DNA of 64,000 nucleotides from a virus. Below the pieces are notes generated by a model. That model had not been told where the DNA came from and made no database searches. It saw nothing but the letters and a program-made list of their open reading frames with translations. Below, in pieces: positions 1,192 to 50,426 of this stretch; positions within the stretch are counted from its first letter, which is position 1, and the number at the start of each line of letters is the position of its first letter. The stretch is taken from positions 33,142 through 97,141 of the IMG/VR virus record IMGVR_UViG_3300024239_000013. One strand, given 5' to 3'. The position numbers and the translations under genes are program-made.

Positions 1192-1824
1192 CTATACATA
1201 CTCGTATTTTTTTTCAGCGGTCCCATTGTACTTAAGCCCATTCTCATAGAATTCCATTTCGTTCTCAGAGATTCTAATTTCCATTTCAGCATCTGAAAAA
1301 TAATCACTATAAGATCTTTCTATTCTGTTTTTTATTTCTTCTACGTGGGTTTTGAATTTTTCCTCTGCGTTTTTAACTAGGACTTTAACGTAGTTGTACC
1401 TTGGATCAGATTCTAAAAATTCATTATCAATTGTAAGTGTCGTTGAAGTATAATGGCTTTCATGAAAACTAAAGCTAATGTACTTCTGGTATTTTTTCGG
1501 AAAGCCAAGCCATTCGAGAAACATTTCTTCGTTGGTTATCTCTAGGGCTTCCTTAATATTAATTGTTCCAAATTCTCCTTCATACTCCAGTCCCTTTCTG
1601 TGGTTTTTGAAAACGAAATTGTCATGGTTCTTTTCATAATAATCCTCTCCGAATAACTCCGCCATTTCTTTGTGTTGGGGTTCGAATAATGCGCAGTCAT
1701 CAATTGCCCAGTCATAAGCCTCGTCGGAATTTGTGTGCTTTAGTCTTTCCCTCATTTTTTCGATAGCAACTTTTTTTGCTTCTTCTGAAAGTTCGTTGAA
1801 TTGGTAAATGTTTATTGTTCTCAT
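1192..1824 (-). CDS. hypothetical protein with capsid-targeting-like N-terminus (MRTINIYQFNELSEE)
   Basis: 210-aa ORF; N-terminal I-Y-Q-F-N-E resembles T4 targeting sequence Y-Q-E-F-I-A-E. Confidence 0.5.
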   Translation of the reverse strand: MRTINIYQFNELSEEAKKVAIEKMRERLKHTNSDEAYDWAIDDCALFEPQHKEMAELFGEDYYEKNHDNFVFKNHRKGLEYEGEFGTINIKEALEITNEEMFLEWLGFPKKYQKYISFSFHESHYTSTTLTIDNEFLESDPRYNYVKVLVKNAEEKFKTHVEEIKNRIERSYSDYFSDAEMEIRISENEMEFYENGLKYNGTAEKKYEYV

Positions 1825-1908
1825 TGTTGTCCTATTTTTGATGAGGTAAAATTACAAAATCTTATTTAGATAAAAAAATAATTTACAAATTTTTTTAAGA
1901 AAAATAAT

Positions 1909-2388
1909 TTAATCTCGAATATTTTCCAACCTCACACTTTCGTTGATTCTTGTATTCAGCTCTCCAACCTTTAAATTAATCCAGTTGTCAACCCTGGCAG
2001 TTATTTCATTTTTAACCAATTCCAGGTCTATATCCACTTTCACATCAAACCCAAAGGAGATTTCAATGTTTTCCGAAAATATCCATGTTTTATTACTATT
2101 CGGTTTGTAGTTCAATTTTTCAGGTTCGTCAAAGTATTCTATGTAGATTGCGGTTTTCTCTGCCACTTGGTCGAGTATACTCATACCCAAAGAATTTTTC
2201 AAAAAAGCTTTTATTGTTTCAGTTCTACTTATCTCTGCGAGAAACTTGCACACAAAAAGCTTATCCCTCGACAACTTTTCGGAAGGGAATAAAAATGAAT
2301 ATCTAACATCAATTTCGACATTCTCTAAACCAAGAGATTCCACCTCGGAAATGAATTCTTCTATCAATCTATCTAACATTTTACACAC
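1909..2388 (-). CDS. hypothetical protein
   Basis: 159-aa ORF. Confidence 0.5.
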   Translation of the reverse strand: MCKMLDRLIEEFISEVESLGLENVEIDVRYSFLFPSEKLSRDKLFVCKFLAEISRTETIKAFLKNSLGMSILDQVAEKTAIYIEYFDEPEKLNYKPNSNKTWIFSENIEISFGFDVKVDIDLELVKNEITARVDNWINLKVGELNTRINESVRLENIRD

Positions 2389-2468
2389 ATATGAGACTAT
2401 TATAAACGTGGGTTAAAAAAATGCAATTTCCCAAAAAGCATTTGTGTCTAATGGGTAACACCTCGGAT

Positions 2469-2735
2469 CTATTGCTGTTCCTTGTCCTTAGCCTTTTTAC
2501 CGGACTCATTTCTTCCCTTTCTCTTAGCAGCTTCTGGATCGGGTCTAGTGACGTACAACGAAACCCCTGCAACAACGCAGGTTAGGATCAATAGCATTGG
2601 CTTCATGAATCCAGGCCACTCCACAGGATTAAAAGAATCCAATAAGAAACTGAGGTTGATATAAACCAGTAATAATGATATAAGGAAAACCTTTCCCTGA
2701 TACTCGAACGAATTGTTGTTTTTTTGATCAGCCAT
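2469..2735 (-). CDS. small membrane protein (one or two hydrophobic helices)
   Basis: 88 aa; hydrophobic stretches FLISLLLVYINLSFLL and MLLILTCVVAGVSLYV. Confidence 0.45.
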   Translation of the reverse strand: MADQKNNNSFEYQGKVFLISLLLVYINLSFLLDSFNPVEWPGFMKPMLLILTCVVAGVSLYVTRPDPEAAKRKGRNESGKKAKDKEQQ

Positions 2736-3019
2736 CTTCTATTCTATTTTATTATATTATATTTTTTTTATACAAATATAGAAAATCTTTGCGGAATAAA
2801 AAAATTAAATTGGGTTCTAAGAGTTTTTTTTAAACGCCCGGCCACATAGTATATTAGCACCTTACTATGTTTTTTTTTGCTGAATCATTTTTTTCCTTCG
2901 AGAAAATTTCATAAATTTACATTGGGGAATTGTGGTCAAAAAAATACACCGAGAAAATATTCCGCGGTGTAAAATAAAGAATAGGTTGTTTATTATTTAA
3001 GTTTATCTTATATTACGTA

Positions 3020-3850
3020 TTAGGGAGTGTAGTTGTCTAGGAAGTGAATAGCCCTTCTCGCCGAATTCCTATTAAATGTTTCTCTGCTCTTAGTGTGTTT
3101 TCTGTAGTATTCACCTCTTCCGAATTCTCTATCGTAGTCATATCCAGGAGAGAGGTAGGATTCCAATTCATCTATGAGTTCGCTCACTATTTCCTTAGTA
3201 TCTATGGGAGCGAGGTCTGTTTCTAGATCCAGCCAGTCCTGAGATGACTTAGGAACCAAAGGATCATTTAGTAGATCTGTGGCGTAGTTGATTGCAGAGT
3301 CTGCGTCGTTTTGTAGTTCGATCTCGGAGCTCGGGTAGGTTAGCTGTAAAGCATATTCCTCCGGGAGGTCCAGTGTTCTAACCACCCACTTATCAGCTTT
3401 GAGCTTATCCTGAGGTCTCTTAGGTGTAAGGATAGTGAATAGTGGGATCCCAATGAAAAGCTCGAACAACTGCTCGTCATCATCGTAGTCTATTTCTCTG
3501 TATAGATCGGGTTCGCCGTCGTAATAGCTTTCCTTCAGACCTTCACCCTCACCTTTATCCTTACTCATCTCCTTATAAAGAGAAAGAGCCGAGGGTTCGT
3601 CAACCAACCCAGCCTTTACGAGTTTGGTGTAGTATGCAGGATCTTCCCATAGGTGATCCAATGCTATCTCTTCTGCAATCCCTTTGTTGTCGGCGTGTTC
3701 AGATTCTACTGCCACCCCGAGTTCCAGTTGCTTATTTTTTAGACTAAGTAGCGTGGCTTCATCTGAGATGCCATGTCTTTTGGCTACCGCGGGTAGGGTT
3801 GGGGGTTTGGAGGCTCCGCCCTGTAAGAACGATTCGAACTTTTGTATCAT
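3020..3850 (-). CDS. hypothetical acidic protein
   Basis: 276-aa ORF; no recognisable motif. Confidence 0.55.
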   Translation of the reverse strand: MIQKFESFLQGGASKPPTLPAVAKRHGISDEATLLSLKNKQLELGVAVESEHADNKGIAEEIALDHLWEDPAYYTKLVKAGLVDEPSALSLYKEMSKDKGEGEGLKESYYDGEPDLYREIDYDDDEQLFELFIGIPLFTILTPKRPQDKLKADKWVVRTLDLPEEYALQLTYPSSEIELQNDADSAINYATDLLNDPLVPKSSQDWLDLETDLAPIDTKEIVSELIDELESYLSPGYDYDREFGRGEYYRKHTKSRETFNRNSARRAIHFLDNYTP

Positions 3851-3919
3851 GTTATGTTAGGTTATGTTATATTGTATTGTTCCTTGTATATATTTACATG
3901 CGTGTTAAAGAGGATGAGA

Positions 3920-5526: not shown

Positions 5527-6354
5527 ATGAGCATTAAGAATTATAAAACATTCATAAGTGAAAGTTCGGATGCAAGTACACTGACAACTGAACAAATAGA
5601 TTTCCTTGACAAGTATGTTATCGGTAAATGGCATATGAATGATGATGGATTTGTTGATGTTGATGGCGTGTTTGATTGTTCTAATAAAGGGATATCTGAT
5701 TTTAAAGGAATAAAGTTTGGTAATGTTGATAGACATTTTAATTGTGCTGATAACAAATTAACCTCATTAGAAGGCGGTCCAAAAGAGGTTGGTGGTAGTT
5801 TTTATTGTAGTCATAACAAAATAACCTCATTAGAATTTGGTCCGAAAGAAGTTGGTGGTCATTTTTATTGTAATCATAACAACATAACCTCATTAGAAGG
5901 TTGTCCAAAAGAGGTCGGCGGTAGTTTTAATTGTTCGTATAACAACTTAATCTCATTAGAATTTGGTCCAAAAGAGGTGAAAGGATATTTTAATTGCTCA
6001 GATAACAACTTAATCTCATTAGAAGGAGCTCCGAAAGAAGTTGACGGTAGTTTTAATTGCTCAGATAACAACTTAATCTCATTAGAAGGAGCTCCAATAG
6101 AAATTGGGCGGGAATTTTATTTGGATCATAACGAAGGTGCATCAGCAGAAACTCTAAAATCGATATACAGTAAAATGAAAGAAGCCAAATCTGATTATAA
6201 AACAGTTTTAAAATCTTTATGGAAAGGAATATCAATAGGAGATAAAATACTTTTATACACACCAGATCTGGATTGGGTTGAAGAAGATGAAGCGGCTAAA
6301 TTATATAACCTAAAGAAGTACAATAGCATAAAGAAAATGCTCTATTTCATATAA
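5527..6354 (+). CDS. targeting-sequence/LRR-like tandem family member 1 (putative capsid-internal, injected protein). Probable start at the internal Met (MSIKNYKTFISESS); the track ORF begins at 5488
   Basis: N-terminal Y-K-T-F-I-S-E-S motif; 22-aa F-x-C-S-x-N-x-L-T/I-S-L-E-G-x-P-K-E-V-G-G repeats; conserved C-terminal domain (KTVLKSLW...LYTPDLDWVEEDE...LKKYNSIKKM). Confidence 0.75.
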   Translation: MSIKNYKTFISESSDASTLTTEQIDFLDKYVIGKWHMNDDGFVDVDGVFDCSNKGISDFKGIKFGNVDRHFNCADNKLTSLEGGPKEVGGSFYCSHNKITSLEFGPKEVGGHFYCNHNNITSLEGCPKEVGGSFNCSYNNLISLEFGPKEVKGYFNCSDNNLISLEGAPKEVDGSFNCSDNNLISLEGAPIEIGREFYLDHNEGASAETLKSIYSKMKEAKSDYKTVLKSLWKGISIGDKILLYTPDLDWVEEDEAAKLYNLKKYNSIKKMLYFI

Positions 6355-6368
6355 TATAAAGAAGCATA

Positions 6369-7064
6369 ATGAAAAGAATCTCAAATTATAAAACATTCAT
6401 AAATGAAAGTACAGGTGCAAGTACATTGACTGCAGAACAGATCGATTTCCTTGATAGATGTGTTAGAGGAACGTGGAAGCTGAATGATGAAGAATTTGTT
6501 GATGTTGATGGGAATTTTGATTGTTTCAATAAAGGAATATCTGACTTTAAAGGAATAAAGTTTGGTAAGGTTAATGGAGATTTTGATTGTTCATATAATA
6601 ATTTAAGTTCTTTGGAAGGATGTCCAAAAGAAGTTGTTGGACATTTTGATTGCTCACATAACAAATTATCTTCATTAGAATTTGCTCCGGAAAGGGTGAG
6701 AAGTAGTTTTTATTGCTCACACAACAACTTAACCTCATTAGAATTTGCTCCGGAAAGGGTGAAAAATAGTTTTTATTGTCAGAATAACAGCTTAACCTCA
6801 TTAGATGGGGTTCCTAAAAAAGTTGGAGGATTTTTTTATTTTGATCATAATGAAGGGATTTCTTCAGAAACCTTAAAAATGATATCCATCCAAATGAAAG
6901 TAATCAAATCTGATTATAAAACAGTTTTAAAATCTTTATGGAGTGAAATACCAGTAGAAGACAAAGTACTTTTATATTCATCAGATCTAGATTGGGTTGA
7001 AGAAGATGAAGGATCTAAATTATCTAATCTAAAGAAGTATAAAAACATAAAGAAAATGATCTAA
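6369..7064 (+). CDS. targeting-sequence/LRR-like tandem family member 2
   Basis: Same N-terminal motif, repeats and C-terminal domain; conserved upstream junction ...TAATATAATATAAAGAAGCATAATG. Confidence 0.8.
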   Translation: MKRISNYKTFINESTGASTLTAEQIDFLDRCVRGTWKLNDEEFVDVDGNFDCFNKGISDFKGIKFGKVNGDFDCSYNNLSSLEGCPKEVVGHFDCSHNKLSSLEFAPERVRSSFYCSHNNLTSLEFAPERVKNSFYCQNNSLTSLDGVPKKVGGFFYFDHNEGISSETLKMISIQMKVIKSDYKTVLKSLWSEIPVEDKVLLYSSDLDWVEEDEGSKLSNLKKYKNIKKMI

Positions 7065-7080
7065 TATAATATAAAGCAAC

Positions 7081-7965
7081 ATGATGAAAAGAATCTCGAA
7101 TTATAAAACATTCATAAACGAAAGCTCGAGTGAAAATAAGCTGACTCAGAAACAACTTGATTTTCTTAACAACCACGTTAAGGGATATTGGAAGTTGAAT
7201 GCTGGAGTTGTTGATGTTGATGGCGATTTTGATTGTTTTAGTAAAGGGATATCAGACTTTAAAGGAATAGTGTTTGGAAAGGTTAGCGGAGATTTTGATT
7301 GCTCACGTAATAATTTAAGTTCTTTAAAAGGTGCTCCTAAAGAGGTTGGTGGACATTTTGATTGTTCACATAACAACTTAAAATCATTAGAAGGAGCTCC
7401 AAAACAGGTTAGTGGAGATTTTGATTGCTCACGTAATAATTTAAGTTCTTTGGAAGGTGCTCCTAAAGAGGTTGGTGGACATTTCCATTGTTCATACAAC
7501 AAATTAACATCATTAGAAGGTTGTCCTAAAGAAGTTGGTGGACATTTTTATTGTTATGTTAACAAATTAACCTCATTAGAATTTGGTCCTAAAGAAGTTG
7601 GTGGAGATTTCGATTGCTCTGACAACAAATTAACCTCATTAGAATTTGGTCCCGAAGAGGTTGGGAGAAGCTTTAATTGCTCAAATAACAAATTAACATC
7701 ATTAGAAGGAGCTCCTAAAGAAGTTGGTGGAGATTTACGATTTTCTCATAATGAGGGAATATCAACCAAAACGATAGGTCTTATATTTGACAAAATGAAA
7801 AAGTCCAAATTGGACTATTCTGATGCTTTAAAATCTTTATGGAAAGAAATACCAGTAGAAGACAAAGTACTTTTATATTCATCAGATCTAGATTGGATTG
7901 AAGAAGATGAAGCGTCTAAATTAGTTAAGTTAAAGAAGTATAATAGCATAAAGAAAATGATCTAA
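7081..7965 (+). CDS. targeting-sequence/LRR-like tandem family member 3
   Basis: Paralog architecture; MMKRISNYKTFINESS start. Confidence 0.8.
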   Translation: MMKRISNYKTFINESSSENKLTQKQLDFLNNHVKGYWKLNAGVVDVDGDFDCFSKGISDFKGIVFGKVSGDFDCSRNNLSSLKGAPKEVGGHFDCSHNNLKSLEGAPKQVSGDFDCSRNNLSSLEGAPKEVGGHFHCSYNKLTSLEGCPKEVGGHFYCYVNKLTSLEFGPKEVGGDFDCSDNKLTSLEFGPEEVGRSFNCSNNKLTSLEGAPKEVGGDLRFSHNEGISTKTIGLIFDKMKKSKLDYSDALKSLWKEIPVEDKVLLYSSDLDWIEEDEASKLVKLKKYNSIKKMI

Positions 7966-7984
7966 TATAATATAAAGAAGCATA

Positions 7985-8869
7985 ATGAAAAGAATCTCAA
8001 ATTATAAAACATTCATAAACGAAAGCTCGAGTGAAAGTACGCTAACACCTGAACAAATTAATTTCCTTAACAATTATGTTAAGGGATATTGGAAGTTGAA
8101 TGCTGATGGAGTTGTTGATGTAGATGGCCATTTTAGTTGTTTCAATAAAGGGTTATCAGACTTTAAAGGAATAGTGTTTGGAAAGGTTAATAGAGATTTT
8201 GATTGTTCAAACAACAACTTAACCTCATTAGAAGGCTGTCCAAAAAAAGTTGGGGGAGATTTTTTTTGTTATGTTAACAAATTAACCTCTTTAAAAGGAT
8301 CGCCAAAAGAGGTTGGTGGTAGTTTTATTTGTTCAGGTAATAACATAATCACATTGGAAGATGCACCTAAAAAAACCAGAAGAAGCTTTGATTGCTCACA
8401 TAATAAATTAACATCATTAGAATTCGGTCCAAAAGAGGTTGGAGGCAATTTTAACTGCTCGCATAATAAATTAACATCATTAGAAGGTGCTCCTGAAGAA
8501 GTTGGTGTGGATTTTTATTGTTATTATAACGAATTGAATAATCTAAAGGGTTCCTCGTATGTAGTTGGAAGAGATTTTAACTGCTCGGATAATAAATTAA
8601 CATCATTAGAAGGAGCTCCAAAAGAAATTGGAGATGATTTCATATTAGAAGATAATGAAGGTGTTTCTTCAGAAATCTTAAAAGAGATATTTAGAAAAAT
8701 GTTAGAATCCAAATTGGACTATAAAACAGTTTTAAAATCTTTATGGAAAGAAATCTCAATAGAAGATAAAATACTTTTATACACACCAGATCTAGACTGG
8801 GTTGAAGAAGATGAAGGGTCCAAATTAGTTAAGCTAAAGAAGTATAGCAACATAAAGAAAATGATCTAG
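7985..8869 (+). CDS. targeting-sequence/LRR-like tandem family member 4
   Basis: Paralog architecture. Confidence 0.8.
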   Translation: MKRISNYKTFINESSSESTLTPEQINFLNNYVKGYWKLNADGVVDVDGHFSCFNKGLSDFKGIVFGKVNRDFDCSNNNLTSLEGCPKKVGGDFFCYVNKLTSLKGSPKEVGGSFICSGNNIITLEDAPKKTRRSFDCSHNKLTSLEFGPKEVGGNFNCSHNKLTSLEGAPEEVGVDFYCYYNELNNLKGSSYVVGRDFNCSDNKLTSLEGAPKEIGDDFILEDNEGVSSEILKEIFRKMLESKLDYKTVLKSLWKEISIEDKILLYTPDLDWVEEDEGSKLVKLKKYSNIKKMI

Positions 8870-8883
8870 TATAAATCAGCATA

Positions 8884-9828
8884 ATGAAAAGAATAATAAA
8901 TTATAAAACATTCGTAAATGAAAGTTCAGGTGCAAGTACACTGACAACTGAACAAATAGATTTCCTTAACAGGTATGTTAGGGGGAAATGGAAGTTGAAT
9001 GCTGGAGTTGTTGATGTTGATGGCGATTTTGATTGTTTTAGTAAAGGGATATCAGACTTTAAAGGAATAGTGTTTGGAAAGGTTAGCGGAGATTTTGATT
9101 GCTCACGTAATAATTTAAGTTCTTTAAAAGGTGCTCCTAAAGAGGTTGGTGGACATTTTGATTGTTCACATAACAACTTAAAATCATTAGAAGATGCACC
9201 TAAAAAAACTGGACGTAGTTTTTATTGTTCGTATAATAAATTAACCTCATTAGAATTTGCTCCGGAAAGGGTGAGAAGTAGTTTTCATTGTCAGAATAAC
9301 AGCTTAACCTCATTAGAAGGAGCTCCTAAAGAAGTTGGAGGGTATTTCGATTGCTCAAGCAACAACTTAACCTCATTAGAAGGAGCTCCAAAAGAGATTG
9401 GGTATGATTTCGATTGCTCACACAACAACTTAACCACATTAGAAGGCTGTCCAAAAGAAATTGTTGAAGATTTCGATTGCTCACACAACAACTTAACCAC
9501 ATTGGAATTCTCTCCAGAGAAAGTTGGTGTTAATTTTTATTGCTTCAATAACAACTTAATTTCATTAAAAGGAGCTCCAAAAGAGATTGGATATGATTTC
9601 ATATTAAAAAATAATGAAGGAGCATCATCAGAAATCTTAAAAGAGATATTTAGAAAAATGTTAGAATCCAAATTGGACTACTCTGATGTTTTAAAATCCC
9701 TTTGGGATGAAATACCAATAAAAGATAAAATAGTTCTATATACCCCTGATCTAGACTGGGTTGAAGAAGATGAAGCGTCTAAATTATCTAAGTTAAAGAA
9801 GTATAGCAACATAAAGAAAATGATCTAG
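8884..9828 (+). CDS. targeting-sequence/LRR-like tandem family member 5
   Basis: Paralog architecture; 9 repeat units. Confidence 0.8.
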   Translation: MKRIINYKTFVNESSGASTLTTEQIDFLNRYVRGKWKLNAGVVDVDGDFDCFSKGISDFKGIVFGKVSGDFDCSRNNLSSLKGAPKEVGGHFDCSHNNLKSLEDAPKKTGRSFYCSYNKLTSLEFAPERVRSSFHCQNNSLTSLEGAPKEVGGYFDCSSNNLTSLEGAPKEIGYDFDCSHNNLTTLEGCPKEIVEDFDCSHNNLTTLEFSPEKVGVNFYCFNNNLISLKGAPKEIGYDFILKNNEGASSEILKEIFRKMLESKLDYSDVLKSLWDEIPIKDKIVLYTPDLDWVEEDEASKLSKLKKYSNIKKMI

Positions 9829-9842
9829 TATAAATCAGCATA

Positions 9843-10727
9843 ATGAAAAGAATAATAAATTATAAAACATTCGTAAATGAAAGTTCAGGTGCAAGTACAC
9901 TGACAACTGAACAAATAGATTTCCTTAACAGGTATGTTAGGGGGAAATGGAAGTTGAATAATGATGGGGTTGTTGATGTAGATGGGGATTTTAATTGTTT
10001 TAATAAAGGGTTATCAGACTTTAAAGAAATAAAATTTGGAAAAGTTACAGGATATTTTGATTGCTCTAAGAACAACTTAACCTCATTAGAGGGTTCACCA
10101 AAAAAAGTTGGTGTAGATTTTTATTGTAGTCATAACAAATTAACCTCATTAGAAGGAGCGCCTATAGAAGTTTATAGAAGTTTCGATTGCAAGGGTAACA
10201 AATTAACCTCGTTAGAATTCGGTCCAAAAAAGGTGGAGGGAAATTTTATTTGTTCAATTAACAAATTAACCTCGTTAGAATTCGGTCCAAAAGGAGTTCC
10301 TGGAACTTTCAATTGTTCATTTAACAAATTAACCTCGTTAGAATTCGGTCCAAAAGAAGTCGGAAGTAGTTTTAATTGCTCATTTAACAACTTAACCTCA
10401 TTAGAATTCTCTCCAGAGAAAGTTGATGTTGATTTTTATTGCTCGAATAATAAATTAACATCATTAGAAGGTGTCCCAAAAGAAATTGGTGGATATTTCT
10501 GGTGTTCTTATAATGTTGGACTATCGACAGATATAATAAATCTTATATTCAGAAAAATGATAAAGTATAGATCTGATTATAAAACAGTTTTAAAATCTTT
10601 ATGGAAAGAAATCTCAATAGAAGACAAGATACTTTTATATTCATCAGATCTAGATTGGATTGAAGAAGATGAAGCGGCTAAATTAGCTAAGTTAAAGAAG
10701 TATAGCAACATAAAGAAAATGATCTAG
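9843..10727 (+). CDS. targeting-sequence/LRR-like tandem family member 6
   Basis: Paralog architecture; 5' region nearly identical to member 5 at the nucleotide level. Confidence 0.8.
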   Translation: MKRIINYKTFVNESSGASTLTTEQIDFLNRYVRGKWKLNNDGVVDVDGDFNCFNKGLSDFKEIKFGKVTGYFDCSKNNLTSLEGSPKKVGVDFYCSHNKLTSLEGAPIEVYRSFDCKGNKLTSLEFGPKKVEGNFICSINKLTSLEFGPKGVPGTFNCSFNKLTSLEFGPKEVGSSFNCSFNNLTSLEFSPEKVDVDFYCSNNKLTSLEGVPKEIGGYFWCSYNVGLSTDIINLIFRKMIKYRSDYKTVLKSLWKEISIEDKILLYSSDLDWIEEDEAAKLAKLKKYSNIKKMI

Positions 10728-10741
10728 TATAAATCAGCATA

Positions 10742-11689
10742 ATGAAAAGAATAATAAATTATAAAACATTCATAAACGAAAGCTCGAGTGAAAATAACTT
10801 GACACCTGAACAGATATATTTCCTGAACAAGCAGATTAAGGGGAAATGGAAGTTGAATGCTGATGGGGTTGTTGATGTTGTTGGAAATATCCATTGTTCA
10901 CATAGAGAAATATCGGACTTCAAGGGAATAAAATTCGGAAAAGTTACTGGGTATTTTGATTGCTCAAATAACAACTTAACATCATTAGAGGGTTGTCCAA
11001 AAGAGGTTGGTGGACATTTTTATTGTTCATATAACAGCTTAACATCATTAGAGGGTTGTCCAAAAGAGGTTGGGGGACATTTTTATTGTCAACGTAACAA
11101 CTTAACCTCATTAGAAGGTGGTCCAGAAAGAGTGAATGGAGATTTCATTTGTTATGGTAACAAATTAGCTTCATTAGAATTTGGACCCAAGGAGGTTAGA
11201 GGTACTTTCGATTGCTCAAATAACAAATTAACATCCTTAGAAGGATGCTCTAAAGAGGTGAATGGAGATTTCGATTGCACATATAACAAATTAACATCAT
11301 TAGAATTCTCTCCAGTTAAAGTTGGTGGTACTTTCGATTGTTCAGATAATAACTTAACCTCATTAGAATTTGGACCTGAAGATGTTGGGGGAGGCTTTAA
11401 TTGTTCCCGTAATAAATTAACCTCATTAGAAGGAGCTCCTAAAGAAGTTGGAGGTACTTTACGATGTTTTTATAATGAGGGTTTATCAAACGAAACAATA
11501 GGTCTTATATTTGAAAAAATGATAAAATCCAGATTGGATTATAAAACAGTTTTAAAATCTTTATGGGGAGAAATACCAATAAAAGATAAAATAGTTCTAT
11601 ATACCCCTGATCTGGATTGGGTTGAAGGAGATGAAGCGGCTAAATTATCTAATCTAAAGAAGTATAGCAACATAAAGAAAATGATCTAA
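10742..11689 (+). CDS. targeting-sequence/LRR-like tandem family member 7
   Basis: Paralog architecture. Confidence 0.8.
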   Translation: MKRIINYKTFINESSSENNLTPEQIYFLNKQIKGKWKLNADGVVDVVGNIHCSHREISDFKGIKFGKVTGYFDCSNNNLTSLEGCPKEVGGHFYCSYNSLTSLEGCPKEVGGHFYCQRNNLTSLEGGPERVNGDFICYGNKLASLEFGPKEVRGTFDCSNNKLTSLEGCSKEVNGDFDCTYNKLTSLEFSPVKVGGTFDCSDNNLTSLEFGPEDVGGGFNCSRNKLTSLEGAPKEVGGTLRCFYNEGLSNETIGLIFEKMIKSRLDYKTVLKSLWGEIPIKDKIVLYTPDLDWVEGDEAAKLSNLKKYSNIKKMI

Positions 11690-11705
11690 TATAATATAAA
11701 AAAAC

Positions 11706-12653
11706 ATGATGAAAAGAATAGTAAATTATAAAACATTCATAAACGAAAGCTCTGGTGAAAATAACCTGACCCCAGAACAAATTGATTTCCTTAACAACTA
11801 TGTTAAGGGGAAATGGAAGTTTAATGTTGGAGTTGTTGATATTGATGGCGATTTTAGTTGTTTCGATAGAGGAATATCTGACTTTAAAGGAATAGTGTTT
11901 GGAAGGGTTACCGGTCATTTTGACTGTTCGGATAACAACTTAACATCATTAGAAGGTTGTCCAAAAGAGGTTGGTGGAAATTTTTATTGTCATTATAACA
12001 ACTTAACCTCATTAGAAGGTTGTCCAAAAGAGGTTGGCGGACATTTTTATTGTCATTATAACAACTTAACATCATTAGAAGGTTGTCCAAAAAAAGTGAA
12101 TGGAGATTTCGATTGCACAGATAACAACTTAACCTCATTAGAATTCGGTCCAAAAGAGATTAATGGACATTTTTATTGTTATGATAACAGCTTAACCTCA
12201 TTAGAATTTGGTCCCGAAAGAGTGAATGGAGATTTTGATTGTTCGAATAACAACTTAACCTCATTAGAATTTGGACCCAAAGAGGTTGGTGGTACTTTCG
12301 ATTGCTCACGTAATAACTTAAGCTCGTTAGAAGGTGTTCCTGAAAAGCTGAACGGAGTTTTTTATTTCTCATGTAACAAATTAACCTCATTAGAAGGTGC
12401 TCCTAAAAAACTAGGATCACAATTTTTTTGTGAGAATAATGAAGGGATATCAACCAAAACGATAAATCTTATATTTGACAAAATGGAAACCTCCAAATCT
12501 GATTATAAAACAGTTTTAAAATCTTTATGGAAAGAAATACCAATAGAAGATAAAATACTTTTATACACCCCAGATCTTGATTGGGTTGAAGAAGATGAAG
12601 GGTCTAAATTAGCTAAGTTAAAGAAGTATAGCAACATAAAGAAAATGATCTAA
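11706..12653 (+). CDS. targeting-sequence/LRR-like tandem family member 8
   Basis: Paralog architecture. Confidence 0.8.
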   Translation: MMKRIVNYKTFINESSGENNLTPEQIDFLNNYVKGKWKFNVGVVDIDGDFSCFDRGISDFKGIVFGRVTGHFDCSDNNLTSLEGCPKEVGGNFYCHYNNLTSLEGCPKEVGGHFYCHYNNLTSLEGCPKKVNGDFDCTDNNLTSLEFGPKEINGHFYCYDNSLTSLEFGPERVNGDFDCSNNNLTSLEFGPKEVGGTFDCSRNNLSSLEGVPEKLNGVFYFSCNKLTSLEGAPKKLGSQFFCENNEGISTKTINLIFDKMETSKSDYKTVLKSLWKEIPIEDKILLYTPDLDWVEEDEGSKLAKLKKYSNIKKMI

Positions 12654-12671
12654 TATAATATAAAGAGCACA

Positions 12672-13367
12672 ATGAAAAGAATAGTAAATTATAAAACTTT
12701 CATAAATGAAAGTGCAGGTGCAAGTACACTGACTTCAGAACAGATAGATTTCCTTAACAACTATGTTAAGGGGAAATGGAAGCTGAATGGTGAAGGATTT
12801 ATTGATATAGATGGTGATTTTAGTTGTTTCGATAAAGGGTTATCAGACTTTAGATGGATAAAATTTGGAAAAGTTACAGGGTATTTTTATTGTTCATATA
12901 ATGGATTGACATCATTAGAGGGAGCACCAAAAAAAGTTGGTTTGAGTTTTTATTGTCATAATAACAAATTAACATCATTGGATGGCTCTCCTAAAGAGAT
13001 TGGTGGAAATTTCGATTGCTCTGACAACAAATTAACCTCATTAGAATTCTCACCCGAAAGTGTAAAGGGGAGCTTTGATTGCTCATATAACAACTTAACA
13101 TCATTAGAATTTGGTCCTAAAGAAGTTGGCGGAGATTTACGATTTTCTCATAATGAGGGATTGTCAACCAAAACGATAGGTCTTATATTTGACAAAATGG
13201 AAAAGTCCAAATTGGACTATAAAACAGTTTTAAAATCTTTATGGAAAGAAATACCAATAGAAGATAAAATACTTTTATACAATGCGGATCTAGATTGGAT
13301 TGAAGGAGATGAAGCGGCTAAATTAGCTAAGTTGAATAAATATAGCAACATAAAGAAAATGATCTAA
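12672..13367 (+). CDS. targeting-sequence/LRR-like tandem family member 9 (short, fewer repeats)
   Basis: Paralog architecture. Confidence 0.8.
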   Translation: MKRIVNYKTFINESAGASTLTSEQIDFLNNYVKGKWKLNGEGFIDIDGDFSCFDKGLSDFRWIKFGKVTGYFYCSYNGLTSLEGAPKKVGLSFYCHNNKLTSLDGSPKEIGGNFDCSDNKLTSLEFSPESVKGSFDCSYNNLTSLEFGPKEVGGDLRFSHNEGLSTKTIGLIFDKMEKSKLDYKTVLKSLWKEIPIEDKILLYNADLDWIEGDEAAKLAKLNKYSNIKKMI

Positions 13368-13386
13368 TATAATATAAAGAAACATA

Positions 13387-14271
13387 ATGAAAAGAATAGT
13401 AAATTATAAAGCATTCATAAACGAAATCTCGAGTGAAAATAACTTGACACCAGAACAGATAGATTTCCTTAACAGGTATGTTGAGGGGAAATGGAAGTTG
13501 AATGCTGATGGAGCTGTTGATGTAGATGGCGATTTTAGTTGTTTCGATAAAGGGTTATCAGACTTTAAAGGAATAGTGTTTGAGAAGATTAGTGGAGATT
13601 TTGACTGTTCGGCTAACAGCTTAATATCATTAGAAGGTTGTCCAAAAGAGGTTAATGGATATTTTTATTGTCATTATAACAAACTAACCTCATTAGAATT
13701 TGGTCCTGAAAGTGTAGATGGAGATTTCGATTGTTCGAATAACAATTTAACTTCATTAGAATTTGGACCCAAAGAGGTTGGTGGAAATTTTGACTGTTCA
13801 TACAACAAATTAACCTCATTAGAAGTCTGTCCAAAAAAAGTTGGGGGAACTTTCAATTGTTCATTTAATAAATTAACATCATTAGAATTCAGTCCAAAAG
13901 AGGTTGGTGGTAGTTTCAATTGCTCATTTAACAACTTAACATCGTTGCAATTCTCTCCAGAGAAAGTTGATGCTTATTTTCATTGTTCAAATAACAACTT
14001 AACCTCATTAGAAGGGGTATCAAAAGAAGTTGGAGGGAATTTAAGATGTTTTTATAATGAAGGGCTATCAACCGAAACAATAAATCTTATATTTGACAAA
14101 ATGATAAAGTCCAAATTGGACTATTCTGATGCTTTAAAATCTTTATGGAAAGAAATACCAGTAGAAGACAAAGTACTTTTATACACACCCGATCTAGATT
14201 GGGTTGAAGAAGACGAAGCGTCTAAATTAGCTAAGCTAAAGAAGTATAGCAGCATAAAGAAAATGATCTAG
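13387..14271 (+). CDS. targeting-sequence/LRR-like tandem family member 10
   Basis: Paralog architecture. Confidence 0.8.
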   Translation: MKRIVNYKAFINEISSENNLTPEQIDFLNRYVEGKWKLNADGAVDVDGDFSCFDKGLSDFKGIVFEKISGDFDCSANSLISLEGCPKEVNGYFYCHYNKLTSLEFGPESVDGDFDCSNNNLTSLEFGPKEVGGNFDCSYNKLTSLEVCPKKVGGTFNCSFNKLTSLEFSPKEVGGSFNCSFNNLTSLQFSPEKVDAYFHCSNNNLTSLEGVSKEVGGNLRCFYNEGLSTETINLIFDKMIKSKLDYSDALKSLWKEIPVEDKVLLYTPDLDWVEEDEASKLAKLKKYSSIKKMI

Positions 14272-14285
14272 TATAAAGAAGAATA

Positions 14286-15233
14286 ATGAAAAGAATAGTA
14301 AATTATAAAACTTTTATAAACGAAAGTTCAGGTGCAAGTACACTGACAACTGAACAGATAGATTTCCTTAACAGGTATGTTAAGGGGAAATGGAAGTTGA
14401 ATGATAATGGAGTTGTTGATGTTGATGGTGATTTTAGTTGTTCCGATAAAGAAATATCAGACTTTAAAGGAATAATATTTGGAAAAGTTACCGGTCATTT
14501 CTATTGCTCAAGTAACAACTTAAGATCATTAGAAGGTTGTCCCAAAGAGGTTGGAGGGGGTTTCAATTGCTCACGTAATGAATTAACATCATTGGAAGGT
14601 TGTCCAGAAAGGGTGAATGGAGATTTCATTTGTTATGGTAACAACTTAACCTCATTAGAAGGTTGTACAGAAAGAGTGAATGGAGATTTCATTTGTTCGG
14701 CTAACAACTTAACCTCATTAGAAGGCTGCCCTAAGGAAGTTGAGGGATTTTTCAATTGTTCATTTAATAAATTAGCTTCTTTAGAAGGATGTCCTGGAGA
14801 AATTGGAAGTAGTTTTTATTGTTCGTATAACAAATTAACCTCATTAGAATTTGGCCCAGAAATGGTGAATGGAGATTTCGTTTGTTCAGATAACAAATTA
14901 ACCTCGTTAGAATTCAGTCCAAAAGAAGTTGGTGGTAATTTTATTTGTTCAGATAACAACTTAACATCATTAGAGGGAATATCAAAAAAAGTTGGGGGAT
15001 CTTTATGGTGTTCTTCTAATGAAGGACTATCAACCGAAACGATAGATCTTATATTTGATAAAATCATAAAGTTCAAATTGGACTATTTGGATGCTTTAAA
15101 TTTTTTATGGGAGGATATCCCAATAGAAGATAAAGTACTTTTATACACACCCGATTTAGATTGGATTGAAGGAGAGGAAGCGGTTAAATTATCTAATCTA
15201 AAGAAGTATAGTAAAATAAAGAAAATGATATAA
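14286..15233 (+). CDS. targeting-sequence/LRR-like tandem family member 11
   Basis: Paralog architecture. Confidence 0.8.
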   Translation: MKRIVNYKTFINESSGASTLTTEQIDFLNRYVKGKWKLNDNGVVDVDGDFSCSDKEISDFKGIIFGKVTGHFYCSSNNLRSLEGCPKEVGGGFNCSRNELTSLEGCPERVNGDFICYGNNLTSLEGCTERVNGDFICSANNLTSLEGCPKEVEGFFNCSFNKLASLEGCPGEIGSSFYCSYNKLTSLEFGPEMVNGDFVCSDNKLTSLEFSPKEVGGNFICSDNNLTSLEGISKKVGGSLWCSSNEGLSTETIDLIFDKIIKFKLDYLDALNFLWEDIPIEDKVLLYTPDLDWIEGEEAVKLSNLKKYSKIKKMI

Positions 15234-15277
15234 TACGGGGATTATAGAATACATAATAGAAAAAAATAATAAACGAT

Positions 15278-15750: not shown

Positions 15751-16335
15751 TTGAATGAATTAAATTTAAGTATTCAGACAATATTTAAAGAAGATCTTAA
15801 GTGTTTATATTTTAATGATATATATAAAATGAATAAAATATTAACATTAAGCGCATTGATAGCTCCGGTTATTTATGAAGCTCAGATCACAGTGATGAAC
15901 CAGAGTTCCATAGAATCGGGACTAAAGATAGTAAAAGGATTAATCAAAAGAGGGTTTACTCCTAAAGCTGCAGCTGCAATAGCAGGAAATATGTGGCAGG
16001 AATCTAGGTTTAATCCAAAGATTAGCCACAAAAACTCTCAGCACGTTGGTATAGTACAATGGGGTGGTAAGAGAAAGCAAAACCTAATGAAAAGATCTGG
16101 ATGGAGCAGATTAGAAACACAATTAGATTTTGTTAAACATGAATTTGATACAAACGATCAGTTTAAAAAGCTACTAAAGAACATCGAAAAGGTGTCATTG
16201 AAAAAAGCAACCGAAGCAGTTGCAAGAACCTATGAGGGATGCAGAGATCCTCATCACCCAAATAGGAATTCGGCTGCACAAAAACTGTTTGAAGCATATA
16301 AAAAAGAAAAACAGACAGTAGATATAATAGAATAA
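15751..16335 (+). CDS. putative peptidoglycan hydrolase (phage tail lysozyme-like motif A-I-A-G-N-M-W-Q-E-S-R-F-N-P ... G-I-V-Q-W)
   Basis: Motif resembles the G-N-x-x-x-E-S-x-F-N-P / Q-W signature of phage tail-lysozyme-type muramidases; this family assignment is from memory. Confidence 0.45.
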   Translation: MNELNLSIQTIFKEDLKCLYFNDIYKMNKILTLSALIAPVIYEAQITVMNQSSIESGLKIVKGLIKRGFTPKAAAAIAGNMWQESRFNPKISHKNSQHVGIVQWGGKRKQNLMKRSGWSRLETQLDFVKHEFDTNDQFKKLLKNIEKVSLKKATEAVARTYEGCRDPHHPNRNSAAQKLFEAYKKEKQTVDIIE

Positions 16336-19961: not shown

Positions 19962-20058
19962 TTTTTAATGTATTTAAAATTTATGTTGCAAATATATTAA
20001 AATAAATCGGATAAAAAAAATAAATCGGATAAAAAAAATTTATTTTGATATATAAAAC

Positions 20059-43625: not shown

Positions 43626-43626
43626 A

Positions 43627-44424
43627 TTATATCATTTTCCAAATTTTCCTGGTTTTTAAAACATTCTTGATTGTTTTTAGATTTTTTTCATTAATCTCGA
43701 TATTATCTTCATTAAAAATTTTAATGAATCCATGGAATATTCTTTTTTTAGCTGATATAGGTAGTTTATCTACTGATTCTATATACTGTGGATTTTCTAA
43801 AAGTGTCTTTGTGAATATTTCACTTAAAATATCTTTATCGACTATTTCACTTAGGGTTGATGGATTATTATAAAATTCATCTATTAAATTATCGTAAAGA
43901 TCTTTTACATTTTGTATTATTTTAGAGGATAAACCTTCAATTTTTTTTATATTAGAAGGAGCTATCAATCTAACATCCTTTAATTTCTCGATAAGATAAT
44001 CTAATGCTTCCTCTATTATAGACTTTAATTGATTATAGTCTCTTGGATTTGCTATGACATTTATTCTATGCCTTTCATCCCATTCATAGGTCTTTTTTAT
44101 TTCATATTCACCTATATTTAAACTTTCATCTATTGATATTTTAATACTTAGAAAATTCCCGATTAAATCCGGAACTGTGTCAAATCCGGTTAGATCTAGA
44201 AGCTTCTCTATCTCAGTTTTTATTTCACCAACATATGTTTTAATGGTTATTAAATAGTATGGAACTTTAGCTTCTAGTTTTCTGTCTATCTCTACGTATT
44301 TTCTACGATTATTTTTTGTGAAATCTAGATCTGCATAAAGTTTTTCTGAGAAATCTTGATCTAAGAAATTTCTAGGCTTATCCGATGATTCATTTATCCA
44401 ATTATTAAAATTCTTAACTTCCAT
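43627..44424 (-). CDS. protein with targeting-like N-terminus (MEVKNFNNWINESSDKP)
   Basis: 265 aa. Confidence 0.55.
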   Translation of the reverse strand: MEVKNFNNWINESSDKPRNFLDQDFSEKLYADLDFTKNNRRKYVEIDRKLEAKVPYYLITIKTYVGEIKTEIEKLLDLTGFDTVPDLIGNFLSIKISIDESLNIGEYEIKKTYEWDERHRINVIANPRDYNQLKSIIEEALDYLIEKLKDVRLIAPSNIKKIEGLSSKIIQNVKDLYDNLIDEFYNNPSTLSEIVDKDILSEIFTKTLLENPQYIESVDKLPISAKKRIFHGFIKIFNEDNIEINEKNLKTIKNVLKTRKIWKMI

Positions 44425-44865: not shown

Positions 44866-45558
44866 TTAATTATGACCGAAATCTATTTCGGCTATATCGT
44901 CTATTGTGTATCCTTCATCATCATTCCCTGATGCATTAACCTCAACAACATATTTATTATTATCTGAGGTTTTTGTGCTGTTATAGATAAAATAGTAATA
45001 AGCTAGTTCACCAGGATTATACATTTTCATGATTTCTACTTTTTCAAATTCTCCAGATACTAATCCAGTCTTATTCCAAAATAACATTTCTATTACATCA
45101 TCATCTATAGATTTAATATAAACATCCTTCATTACCCTAGGATATAAAGAAGAGATTTCCATCGTAGAAGATGTGCAGTTTATATTAACATAGACTTCTG
45201 ATTCTTTGTATTTTAATTTAAGTACCACATCAAAGCCATATTCCAATTCATCTATGGTACGTCTAGCTCTCATCTTACCTATAACTGAGAGTTTTTTTAA
45301 TATATCTTCGGAAAGCTTTGGGTATGTAGATATTATATTTTTATTATCTTTAATAAAATTGTAAAAATCTTCAAAGGATAAATTCTCGAATGGTTCTTCT
45401 ATTCTAATATCATAGAATCTCAAACCAGATCTCCAATATTTTAATTTTATAGGTTTGCCTGTTAAGTTTGAAATCTCGTCTATTAATGATTCCAAGCTAT
45501 CTGTGGGTTGGGTAAAATCTTCAAATATTTTAATTCTTCTCATGATATATTTATCCAA
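44866..45558 (-). CDS. hypothetical protein
   Basis: 230-aa ORF. Confidence 0.5.
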   Translation of the reverse strand: MDKYIMRRIKIFEDFTQPTDSLESLIDEISNLTGKPIKLKYWRSGLRFYDIRIEEPFENLSFEDFYNFIKDNKNIISTYPKLSEDILKKLSVIGKMRARRTIDELEYGFDVVLKLKYKESEVYVNINCTSSTMEISSLYPRVMKDVYIKSIDDDVIEMLFWNKTGLVSGEFEKVEIMKMYNPGELAYYYFIYNSTKTSDNNKYVVEVNASGNDDEGYTIDDIAEIDFGHN

Positions 45559-47416: not shown

Positions 47417-47490
47417 AATAAGTTTCCTTTTATTTATATATCTCTTATTTATATAAAAAACAATAAATAATCAGTCTTTTTAATAACTTT

Positions 47491-48765: not shown

Positions 48766-49019
48766 ATTTTTTAATTTATTAGATGTGACAGTTCTATATA
48801 GATATTAAAGTATCAACTATATTCTATTCAAAAAATAGGTTTAAAGAATCAATATCAGATTCATTTATTATTATAAAATACTCTCATATATTAATTTTAT
48901 ACCCAAATTTACATTCAAATTACGGGATAAAAAAATATAGATATATAATTATTTTTTTAATGGATCTTTTTAATTTGTCTAGATTACATTCTTTCGATGG
49001 ACTGAAAGAAATAAATTAA

Positions 49020-49049
49020 TTTGTAAAATATTATATGTCTAGTATAATT
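49020..49049 (+). promoter_or_regulatory. sigma70-like promoter candidate (TTTGTA-N17-TATAAT) upstream of 49093..49671, in a 327-bp divergent AT-rich intergenic region
   Basis: Hexamers read in the sequence; spacing is 17 nt. Confidence 0.3.
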
Positions 49050-49092
49050 CTTATTTTTCGATATATAAAAAAATCATATATTTTTAGCAATA

Positions 49093-49671
49093 ATGAAATA
49101 TCCAAAGAAGTATCTCACAGCAAATCCAAATGTAATGAAAAGAGAGATTAAAAAACACGGGGGAAAGGAAGACGACGATTCTTCCGCATACGGACCCTGG
49201 GATGCTGATTATAAAAGTAGAAAAGCTGGAAAGGGTAAACCGATTCCAACTAAACAGTCTAAATACACAAAAAAATACAAGGAACTCTTTGGAGAAAAAG
49301 AAAATTTTGAATCTAAAAACATACTAGATTTTGATGTGTTTAATCTACCAGACAATCTATTTGAGGATATAATTATAGAAAATACTGAAATTACCGAAAA
49401 GGTTATTATGGAATCTTCGATGGAGAAAGATGGTCCTATATATAAGGCTTTAAAAAAGAAATCTGATAAAACTGGATTTCCTCTAAATATATTAAAAAAA
49501 GTTTGGTCTAGAGGGTATTCAGCCTGGAAAACCGGTCATATTCCTGGGACTACACCCCAGCAATGGGCTATGGCTAGAGTTAATTCTTTTGTTACTGGTG
49601 GTAAAACAACTAAAATGTCCGATAAGGCACTATATGACCAGGCAAAGAAAAACAAGAAACAAAAAAGGTAG
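49093..49671 (+). CDS. hypothetical basic protein
   Basis: 192-aa ORF. Confidence 0.55.
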   Translation: MKYPKKYLTANPNVMKREIKKHGGKEDDDSSAYGPWDADYKSRKAGKGKPIPTKQSKYTKKYKELFGEKENFESKNILDFDVFNLPDNLFEDIIIENTEITEKVIMESSMEKDGPIYKALKKKSDKTGFPLNILKKVWSRGYSAWKTGHIPGTTPQQWAMARVNSFVTGGKTTKMSDKALYDQAKKNKKQKR

Positions 49672-49676
49672 TTCTT

Positions 49677-50426
49677 TTAAACTACCATATTTTTTTCAAA
49701 TTGTTCATATGTCCATTTAAGATAATCGTTACCAGCTTGGGTATTTTTAAAGGGATCTATTGGAATTTCGCCCCTATATTTATCAGGGCTTATCTTTTTC
49801 AGCTGTTCCCAAGCAGAAGGACCTATTTGAAATAGTCCTTTATAAGTTCTGTTTGTGTCTGGATCTGGATCAAATCTAGATTCTTTGTAAGCAACGGTCG
49901 TCAGAAATTCTTTTGGGAAATTAGGATTTGGTAGCTTTTCTATAGCATTCTTAACAACTTTATGTTGTGGAAGATTTATTTTATTTAAAGCTTCTTTTTT
50001 ATATTTATCCCAAGTGTTCTTCTGATAATTCAGAAAAGCCAATACAGCTTCCTTATCGTTTCCTTTTAAAACTTTAGCGTATCCTGGATCAGAGGAAGGC
50101 ATATTTTTAAGCATATTGTTTCTATCAGAACTGTTCAGTTTTTCCTTTCCTAGATAAACGTTAACCAATTTAACTGCTCCAGAAGGACCCTGCTGATGAG
50201 GTAAATATAACATATGTTGTCCTTCTATAGGAGAAGGTTGTTTAGCAACCTGTTGTTTTTTAACCTGTGTTGGTTGGAGGGTTTTCTGTGCTTCTTTCTG
50301 AAAAATTCTAGATAATAGCTTTTTAAAACTATCCCACAAATTCTTAACTCCATCTGAAAATCCCTCGTTAATTTCCAATTCGGGGTGAAATTCAAATTCT
50401 CTATATTCTTTAATGTGTTTTAGCAT
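49677..50426 (-). CDS. second lytic transglycosylase (SLT domain) with targeting-like N-terminus (MLKHIKEYREFEFHPELEINEG)
   Basis: SLT-type motif TVAYKESRFDPDPD...YKGLFQIGPSAWEQ. Confidence 0.6.
   Translation of the reverse strand: MLKHIKEYREFEFHPELEINEGFSDGVKNLWDSFKKLLSRIFQKEAQKTLQPTQVKKQQVAKQPSPIEGQHMLYLPHQQGPSGAVKLVNVYLGKEKLNSSDRNNMLKNMPSSDPGYAKVLKGNDKEAVLAFLNYQKNTWDKYKKEALNKINLPQHKVVKNAIEKLPNPNFPKEFLTTVAYKESRFDPDPDTNRTYKGLFQIGPSAWEQLKKISPDKYRGEIPIDPFKNTQAGNDYLKWTYEQFEKNMVV

Follow-up and report, generated by a model that had tools for sequence, protein, structure and literature searches.

A register-locked N-terminal tag on unrelated proteins of an uncultured huge phage resembles the T4 capsid targeting sequence and may mark head cargo

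Results

A shared N-terminus on otherwise unrelated proteins

We describe a short N-terminal peptide, hereafter the tag, that recurs in a 64,000-nucleotide stretch of viral DNA (the window; positions 33,142 to 97,141 of IMG/VR record IMGVR_UViG_3300024239_000013). The window is AT-rich, with a GC content of about 31%, its short genes are densely packed, and about 20% of its open reading frames (ORFs) carry the tag: 11 tandem leucine-rich repeat (LRR) genes and 13 non-LRR ORFs, with lengths of 88 to 315 amino acids (aa; Table 1). The tag has a register-locked consensus, M-[KR]-x-[ILV]4-[KR]-x-[YF]7-x-x-[FW]10, that mostly runs directly into [ILV]-N-E; MKNIKLYENFINES is one example. As the original prediction for this DNA held, the proteins behind the tag are otherwise unrelated, having SLT (twice), LRR or DUF5661 domains or no detectable domain, with a CHAP-domain member encoded just outside the window. 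PHROG matches include ‘internal virion protein with endolysin domain’.

The N-terminal enrichment that the original prediction proposed as a check is strong. A register rule (an aliphatic residue at position 4, Y/F at 7 and F/W/Y at 10, register ±1) picks out 24 of 116 window ORFs; when the first 16 residues are shuffled with their composition preserved, it picks out 0.7 ± 0.8. With the tandem LRR genes set aside, all 11 of them, the counts are 13 of 105 and 0.6 ± 0.8, and the highest reached in 2000 shuffles is 4. A strict form, [YF]xx[FW][ILVM]xE starting in the first 11 residues, occurs in 15 window ORFs, where 0.37 would be expected from its internal frequency. Finally, a position-specific scoring matrix (PSSM) trained solely on N-termini of the related phage LR756502, introduced below, splits the window ORFs bimodally, with 21 scoring at least 7.0 bits, the next best 3.0, and an internal-Met control peaking at 3.4. 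Tyr and Phe show no general enrichment at window N-termini, a mild excess of Lys, Asn and Ile runs through all of them, and the DNA that encodes the tag differs from member to member.

The tag mostly ends in what looks like a protease site. All 11 LRR ORFs have [IV]-[NS]-E at its end, while among the non-LRR members [ILV]NE falls within 17 residues in 6 of 12 (background 0.015) and any [ILVM]xE does so in 9 of 12, as in 11 of 11 LRR ORFs (background 0.31). These candidate cleavage sites lie at residues 11-23, have an aliphatic P3 and most often read [ILV]-N-E then S.

The tag as defined here is more precise than the consensus first proposed, and membership shifts slightly. The ten non-LRR ORFs first listed as sharing the N-terminus all exist at their coordinates and translate as quoted, and nine belong by the register rule or the PSSM. 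The tenth, 1192-1824 on the minus strand (MRTINIYQFNE), is not a member: its aromatic residues have a Y-x-F spacing, it scores -4.1 on the PSSM, and a conserved PHROG domain, whose alignment begins at residue 1-2, takes in its N-terminus. Four ORFs missing from that list are added (44866-45543, 30138-30404, 30406-30975 and 29385-29822), and 41994-42392 was rejected as a member, its motif not being kept in orthologues. Some members call for comment. The start at 26231 is an internal ATG of ORF 26168-26803 and is supported by a promoter-like TATATAAT that directly abuts it. An N-terminus similar to that of 29385-29822, MEHILEYEQFSGESLNE, is present in a related locus (L016). The low PSSM score of 30406-30975 is due to Tyr at residue 10. 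ORF 43627-44424 fails the PSSM (-4.3), yet it fits the strict form as well as the register rule, and orthologues keep its tag unchanged. Orthologues of 49677-50426 keep the tag as well as [ILV]NE then G at about residue 19-22. The LRR paralogues hold between 2 and 8 of the 63-nt (21-residue) leucine-rich repeats, the number differing among them; Vibrio phage SRILMA encodes an LRR protein at 57% identity that has no tag.

The tag in a related huge phage and in other viral contigs

Window genes are also found in ENA assembly ERZ27245855, where they lie on one contig of 276,364 bp and another of 89,217 bp, and because they sit on contigs of this size, the smaller of which stops within the LRR array where the public assembly breaks, we take the source to be a huge phage. 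Megablast of 20 kb against cultured phages found no close cultured relative, and the nearest, Tenacibaculum jumbo phage PTm1, is matched by only 3 of 115 window proteins. Neither the tagged SLT protein nor one IMG/VR tagged protein had a tblastn match among phages, and an IMG/VR scan with the 43627-44424 family returned no relatives. The complete 642,428-bp genome of uncultured phage LR756502.1 (hereafter LR756502) is matched by 24 window ORFs, at 45-62% identity for the conserved non-LRR matches (62% for an SPFH protein, 48% for ClpP). This genome is among the largest of a survey of huge phages, in which genomes above 634 kb had Bacteroidetes as their predicted hosts and were assigned to the Mahaphage clade (PMC7162821).

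The tag is abundant in LR756502 as well, where 110 of 956 ORFs fit the register rule against 9.5 ± 2.8 expected, with the first aromatic exactly at residue 7 in 80 ORFs and typical N-termini of MKHLKxYKIFES and MxxKxYxxF[IV]NE. The aromatic pair [YF]7-x-x-[FW]10, spaced i, i+3, thus stands in a fixed register in both the window and LR756502. Most of the tagged LR756502 proteins have no Pfam domain; single cases have PPK2, PolyA_pol, RNA ligase, NUDIX, methyltransferase, ankyrin, SET, GNAT, HNH, LigT/Acb1 or SLT domains. PTm1 served as a negative control, with 3 of 317 ORFs fitting and 3.0 expected. An IMG/VR scan for DNA coding for YENFINE gave 51 sites, mostly internal and in unrelated families, of which three are tag-like N-terminal cases (contigs L024, L051 and L056). 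Clusters of tagged ORFs lie on two of these AT-rich viral contigs, at L056 5885-7643 and L051 3792-6438 (MKHLKRYDES, MKKLKTYENFINEE, MIKKYNQFVNEN, MKNIEKYENFINEG), and so the tag is present beyond the two genomes studied here. The huge-phage survey describes ribosomal protein S21 with ‘basic and aromatic N-terminal extensions’ (PMC7162821), which might be the same tag; a crude regular-expression search for an S21 gene came up empty in both the window and LR756502.

The tag is conserved at the protein level and movable

Seven homologues of 43627-44424, six at 46-48% identity and one at 98%, share invariant M1, K4, F6, N7, W9, N11, E12 and S13, and residues 14-28 vary freely. In syntenic loci of three related phages (L014, L016 and L018), orthologues of four tagged genes all keep the tag, and synonymous codon differences occur inside it while Trp (TGG), Glu and Ser are conserved. 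These alignments indicate that selection acts on the tag at the protein level and that neither codon usage nor composition accounts for it. The tag of the LR756502 CCA-adding enzyme, like that of an RNA ligase of this phage, sits on an N-terminal extension of 30-36 residues that the window orthologue lacks, which makes the tag a movable module. Tagged LRR and SLT proteins are found, with their tags, in both the window phage and LR756502. In the one AlphaFold2 model made, of 43627-44424, the tag is predicted as a helix at residues 6-11, followed by a low-confidence linker (11-21) and then a folded domain.

The identifiable window enzymes are typical of phages: a T4 Rnl1-type RNA ligase, a tRNA-His guanylyltransferase (Thg1), a CCA-adding enzyme, an intein-split RNA ligase, a GMP-reductase-like protein, ClpP and SmpB. 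The original prediction allowed that a motif equally frequent on cytoplasmic enzymes would be a translational or codon bias; in the window, RNA ligase, Thg1, the CCA-adding enzyme, GMP reductase and ClpP are all untagged, an outcome that favours its targeting reading.

A promoter-like element precedes tagged genes and head genes

Of the 12 non-LRR tagged ORFs, 9 have a GATATA(T)AAT-like element in the 70 nt upstream, as do 7 of 93 others (Fisher p = 7e-7). Those of the tagged ORFs, 0-50 nt from the start, are consensus matches and putative promoters. Directly upstream of the element of 20059-20415, at 19999-20039, is a perfect 18-nt tandem repeat (AAAATAAATCGGATAAAA, 2.3 copies). A related AT-rich element in LR756502, AATATATA, stands upstream of tagged ORFs in 57% of cases and of the remaining ORFs in 16%; the portal, protease, major capsid protein, terminase and sheath genes likewise have a match to it or a close variant upstream. 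That tagged and head genes share a putative promoter suggests that they are co-expressed, as packaging requires.

Correspondence with T4 and head machinery in relatives

The T4 capsid targeting sequence (CTS) is MKTYQEFIAE (PMC8442874); it is removed inside the prohead and suffices to package foreign proteins (PMC8442874, PMC3012670). Suppressor-based mutagenesis assigned Y4 and F7 to targeting and I8 and E10 to processing, and Asp at position 10 stops cleavage while targeting is kept (PMC9026906). The window forms Y-K-T-F-I-N-E, Y-E-N-F-I-N-E and F-N-E-F-V-N-E have the same aromatic-x-x-aromatic-[ILV]-x-E layout as T4 Y-Q-E-F-I-A-E. The same pattern closes the 65-residue propeptide of T4 gp23, which ends FGSFLTE then A, as we checked on the T4 sequence.

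The LR756502 portal, major capsid protein and protease-scaffold fusion (699 residues) all have homologues in PTm1, and the database proteins that the protease domain matches carry precomputed Peptidase_S77 (gp21-type) hits. Further relatives, including L085 and L086, have Portal_T4 and Gp23 hits, and these two also have a Peptidase_S77-type protease. The scaffold of three relatives is built from tandem 14-residue repeats, N-I-x-Y-S-E-Y-I-A-E-N-L-D-K, with about a dozen copies in LR756502 and L086, and the core of the repeat, YSEYIAE then N, is comparable to T4 YQEFIAE. At least contig L085, from a metagenome, ends within the scaffold repeat. The LR756502 capsid protein has EYAEFHQINE then N at residues 34-44, and tagged ORFs flank the head genes of that phage, two upstream of the portal (221232 and 222007) and one downstream of the capsid gene (231351). 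The motif thus occurs in the scaffold unit, at the candidate maturation site of the capsid protein and at about 10% of N-termini, as would be expected if cargo mimics the scaffold unit and the same protease releases it.

Other features of the window

Untagged window genes include a translation and proteostasis toolkit (ClpP-family protease, SmpB, Thg1-type guanylyltransferase and CCA-adding enzyme; Table 1); a scan of the window found zero tRNAs. An RNA ligase gene is seemingly interrupted at 45717-48300 (minus strand); in related phages the RNA ligase is one intact ORF of 357-380 aa. Two neighbouring membrane-protein-like ORFs at 26869-28686 (minus strand) are conserved in PTm1 at 32-35% identity, and the only other window ORF conserved there is the endonuclease-like 46448-47416. 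The first of the two also matches Lak, Aeromonas, Vibrio and Bacillus jumbo phages, and in PTm1 the homologue of 28129-28686 bears the annotation ‘virion structural protein’. Between a minus-strand block and the LRR array lies a divergent gap of about 1.6 kb (3851-5487) in which no ORF is convincing as a gene, those present being low-complexity ‘SLSLSL’ runs. GC skew flips sign there, and the gap holds G-rich tandem repeats, of 26 nt at 4252-4302 and 33 nt at 4498-4601; it could be a regulatory or replication-related region.

Table 1. Tagged ORFs, promoter-like elements and other features (window positions unless another contig is named)
Feature	Position	Strand	Remarks
11 tagged LRR genes, tandem	5527..15233	+	each begins MKRI.NYK[TA]F[IV]NE; first begins MSIKNYKTFISES
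LRR genes 1-6	5527-6354, 6369-7064, 7084-7965, 7985-8869, 8884-9828, 9843-10727	+	
LRR genes 7-11	10742-11689, 11709-12653, 12672-13367, 13387-14271, 14286-15233	+	
Tagged ORF, 152 aa	15278..15736	+	MRYIQLYENFSVLNE then T; no known domain
Tagged ORF, 91 aa	16355..16630	+	MKNIKLYENFINE then K; no known domain
Tagged ORF, 118 aa	17700..18056	+	MKNLKVYENFLIK; aromatic pair present, no nearby [ILV]xE site
Tagged ORF, 267 aa	18187..18990	+	MKKIASFNEFVNE then D; C-terminal SLT lytic transglycosylase domain, residues 170-248
Tagged ORF, 118 aa	20059..20415	+	MEKMIKNYNNFINE then S
Tagged ORF, 190 aa	26231..26803	+	MLNLKTFALFE then S, LR756502-style variant
Probable tagged ORF	29385..29822	-	from third codon (Met): MENILEYNQWNN, in register
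Tagged ORF, 88 aa	30138..30404	+	MKNLKPFEDYNISNLDE then A
Probable tagged ORF, 189 aa	30406..30975	+	MSRLVKFDKYKSEIKE then S; fits register rule
Tagged ORF, 127 aa	43242..43625	-	MNNIKIYENFDDE; orthologues keep [YF]-E-x-W, no conserved cleavage-like site
Tagged ORF, 265 aa	43627..44424	-	MEVKNFNNWINE then S
Tagged ORF, 225 aa from ATG at 45543	44866..45543	-	MRRIKIFEDFTQPTDSLESLIDE then I; orthologues begin MKNIKLFE[ED]F
Tagged ORF, 249 aa	49677..50426	-	MLKHIKEYREFEFHPELEINE then G; C-terminal SLT domain, residues 162-246
Possible member, 276 aa	3020..3850	-	MIQKFESFLQGG; DUF5661; PSSM 9.7; register off by 2; no nearby cleavage-like site
CHAP-domain ORF just past the window's left edge	L002 13649-14446	- (of locus)	tagged, MDKIKSFDQFLNEAQF
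Promoter-like GATATATAA	5456..5464	+	upstream of first LRR gene
Promoter-like GATATAAT	15227..15234	+	43 nt upstream of 15278
Promoter-like GATATAAT	16321..16328	+	26 nt upstream of 16355
Promoter-like GATATAAAA	17641..17649	+	50 nt upstream of 17700
Promoter-like GATATATAA	18156..18164	+	22 nt upstream of 18187
Promoter-like GATATATAA	20047..20055	+	3 nt upstream of 20059
Promoter-like TATATAAT	26223..26230	+	abuts ATG at 26231
Promoter-like GATATAAT	43626..43633	-	abuts start of 43242-43625
Promoter-like GATATATAA	44428..44436	-	3 nt upstream of 43627-44424
Promoter-like GATATATAA	50431..50439	-	4 nt upstream of 49677-50426
Scaffold proteins of relatives	LR756502.1 225272-227371 (L075); L085 10001-11044; L086 6477-8633		tandem 14-residue units
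CCA-adding enzyme	34804-35547	-	untagged
Thg1-type tRNA-His guanylyltransferase	38615-39457	-	untagged
SmpB	42404-42847	-	untagged
Intein C-part + RNA_ligase domain	45717-46454	-	part of split RNA ligase
DUF7487/DUF559 homing-endonuclease-like ORF	46448-47416	-	inside split RNA ligase region
PHA02142 OB-fold + intein N-part	47491-48300	-	part of split RNA ligase
ClpP-family protease	52654-53403	-	untagged; adjoins tagged genes in relatives as well

Discussion

The tag is probably a T4-type capsid-targeting and processing propeptide that marks head cargo. The original prediction had proposed a capsid-targeting signal, and this is the best-supported reading of the shared N-terminus, on evidence that is computational throughout. 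Under this reading, the short amphipathic helix of the tag would attach a freshly synthesized protein to the scaffolding core of a prohead under assembly by mimicry of the scaffold's own repeat unit. A gp21-type prohead protease would then cut after the adjoining [ILV]-x-E, most often [ILV]-N-E then S; the tag would leave the capsid, and the mature protein would be kept in the head and ejected with the DNA into the next host. Binding of tag to scaffold, cleavage, presence in the virion and ejection are all steps that we infer. By analogy with the separable targeting and processing residues of T4, the products of 17700, 43242 and 3020 may be targeted but left unprocessed.

The predicted cargo genes of the window are the 11 of the LRR array, two for SLT transglycosylases and about ten for small proteins without assigned function, with a CHAP hydrolase gene just outside. 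Cell-wall hydrolases are classic ejected or virion proteins, and a part in penetrating the wall at entry would suit the CHAP protein and both SLT proteins. That the LRR array is a diversifying set of injected binders is speculation on our part.

Several observations weigh against a packaging role. The case for this phage and its relatives rests wholly on sequence. We found no gp21-type protease or scaffold in the window or its 10-kb flanks; the phage's own protease is not among the 94 homologues recovered with the LR756502 protease as query, and none lies on the 276-kb or 89-kb contigs. The PTm1 protease query gave 3 matches, and three contigs examined in this search belong to other phages, having 25% GC or coming from other samples. 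The head module is known from relatives only, whose conserved proteins are 45-62% identical to those here. PTm1, with a protease of this type, shows no tag enrichment. Within the window, 17700, 43242 and 3020 have no nearby cleavage-like site, and the isoelectric points of the tagged proteins range from 4.2 to 9.5, so that they are not uniformly basic like T4 internal proteins. The roughly 110 tagged ORFs of LR756502 far exceed any known cargo set (T4 has a handful) and include housekeeping-type enzymes (PPK2, CCA-adding enzyme, RNA ligase, NUDIX, methyltransferases).

This last set fits intracellular sorting or turnover more readily than packaging, and the tag could accordingly be imagined as a sorting or docking peptide for a non-capsid target, whether an N-degron for timed degradation by a ClpP system or an address for some other phage-built assembly or compartment. 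A ClpP-family protease is indeed encoded in the window and conserved beside tagged genes in relatives. We nonetheless consider such a role unlikely. No ClpX or adaptor was seen and no degron of this form is known, and neither version explains why the tag matches the T4 CTS down to the cleavage triplet, why its motif recurs in the scaffold repeats and the N-terminal region of the capsid protein, or why tagged genes have an upstream element in common with head genes.

A translation-initiation effect is much less probable still. On that account, AT-rich 5' codons (Lys, Asn, Ile, Tyr, Phe) would be favoured on short-leader or leaderless late mRNAs of an AT-rich phage, whose relatives have Bacteroidetes as predicted hosts, and the peptide itself would be functionless. 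The tag does consist for a large part of AT-rich codons, a distance of 0-50 nt between promoter-like element and ATG implies very short leaders, and Lys, Asn and Ile are mildly enriched at all N-termini. The account is nevertheless largely refuted by the shuffles (0.6 expected against 13 observed), by the lack of Tyr and Phe enrichment at other N-termini, and by the survival of tag residues, among them Trp (TGG), Glu and Ser, through synonymous changes. The register at residues 4, 7 and 10 is fixed, and the tag arrives with extensions of 30-36 residues; that those LR756502 enzymes which are tagged, a minority of its enzymes, carry it on such added sequence speaks for a sorting signal rather than initiation bias. 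That the tagged ORFs are instead fast-diverging paralogues of one ancestral gene that have retained only its N-terminus is scarcely credible, for although many are clustered, small and without detectable domains and the LRR array shows local duplication to be active here, they have unrelated Pfam domains (SLT, LRR and DUF5661 in the window, CHAP outside it, and PPK2, PolyA_pol, RNA ligase, NUDIX, SET, Ank and HNH in LR756502), orthologous enzymes occur both with and without the tag, tag-coding DNA is unlike between members, and retention of only 10-13 residues would itself imply function.

Returning to capsid targeting, we tentatively extend the proposal to Mahaphage-like huge phages, whose hosts are predicted to be Bacteroidetes. 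In these phages an extended T4-type tag on 10-20% of genes might load a very large, fast-evolving injected proteome of LRR binder arrays, cell-wall hydrolases, tRNA-repair enzymes, a LigT/Acb1-like phosphoesterase, NUDIX hydrolase and methyltransferases, with a scaffold that is a tandem array of the docking motif; on balance we hold this wider picture with some doubt. If it is true, sequence alone, also from metagenomes, would allow prediction of which proteins uncultured huge phages package and inject, and these phages would deliver dozens of proteins with their DNA, which would help explain part of their extra coding capacity. In that case the LRR array becomes a candidate source of injected binders or effectors, diversifying in the way of the T4 internal-protein locus. 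The link between tag and scaffold repeat also suggests a docking principle, in which cargo imitates the scaffold unit together with its protease site, that could be reused to load foreign proteins into capsids.

The principle of a CTS paired with gp21 is known from T4, and a looser analogue exists in phiKZ-like phages. What appears to be new is a longer, register-locked tag in this huge-phage clade, on dozens to about a hundred genes that include LRR arrays, hydrolases and enzymes, together with a scaffold of tandem motif copies; we found no description of the tag in the open-access literature searched.

Among known systems, the N-terminal segment of phage P1 DarB is enough to bring the protein, or a reporter, into the capsid, from which it is delivered to the host (PMC9024508). 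DarB differs in having a single 30-residue signal on one protein within a stepwise Dar assembly pathway, and the part of that paper drawn on here reports no relation to a T4-type protease or scaffold. The phiKZ-like giant phages (SPN3US, phiKZ, 201phi2-1) have long N-terminal propeptides on head and ejection proteins. In a jumbo phage a gp21-related prohead protease trims the N-terminal propeptides of many internal head proteins; these propeptides are thought to direct proteins into the prohead, and paralogues have conserved N-termini (PMC5694885). However, most of these propeptides exceed 100 residues, though shorter ones occur (20 residues in SPN3US gp45), with A/S-x-E-type sites and no short shared consensus reported. 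The window tag, by contrast, spans about 13-21 residues in a fixed register with an [ILV]-x-E site, and its cleavage-like sites at residues 11-23 with an aliphatic P3 set it apart from the long-propeptide type.

T4 offers the nearest comparison. The window tag is 3 residues longer at its start than the T4 CTS (M-K-x-[IL]-K-x before the aromatic pair) and its P2 is usually Asn, and genomes of this group have dozens to about 110 tagged genes, unlike the handful of T4. The predicted cargo includes LRR arrays, cell-wall hydrolases and the enzymes of LR756502; it is not uniformly small and basic, and its members are not homologues of the small, highly basic, DNA-associated internal proteins of T4 (IPI, IPII, IPIII). 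The gp22 scaffold of T4, unlike that of the relatives, is not a tandem array of the motif. The two systems nonetheless share an N-terminal tag of about 10-20 residues on unrelated proteins, in which an i, i+3 aromatic pair is followed by [IL]-x-E; the same pattern stands at the maturation site of T4 gp23 and at a candidate site of this kind in the LR756502 capsid protein, and the relatives of the window phage encode gp20-, gp21- and gp23-type head proteins.

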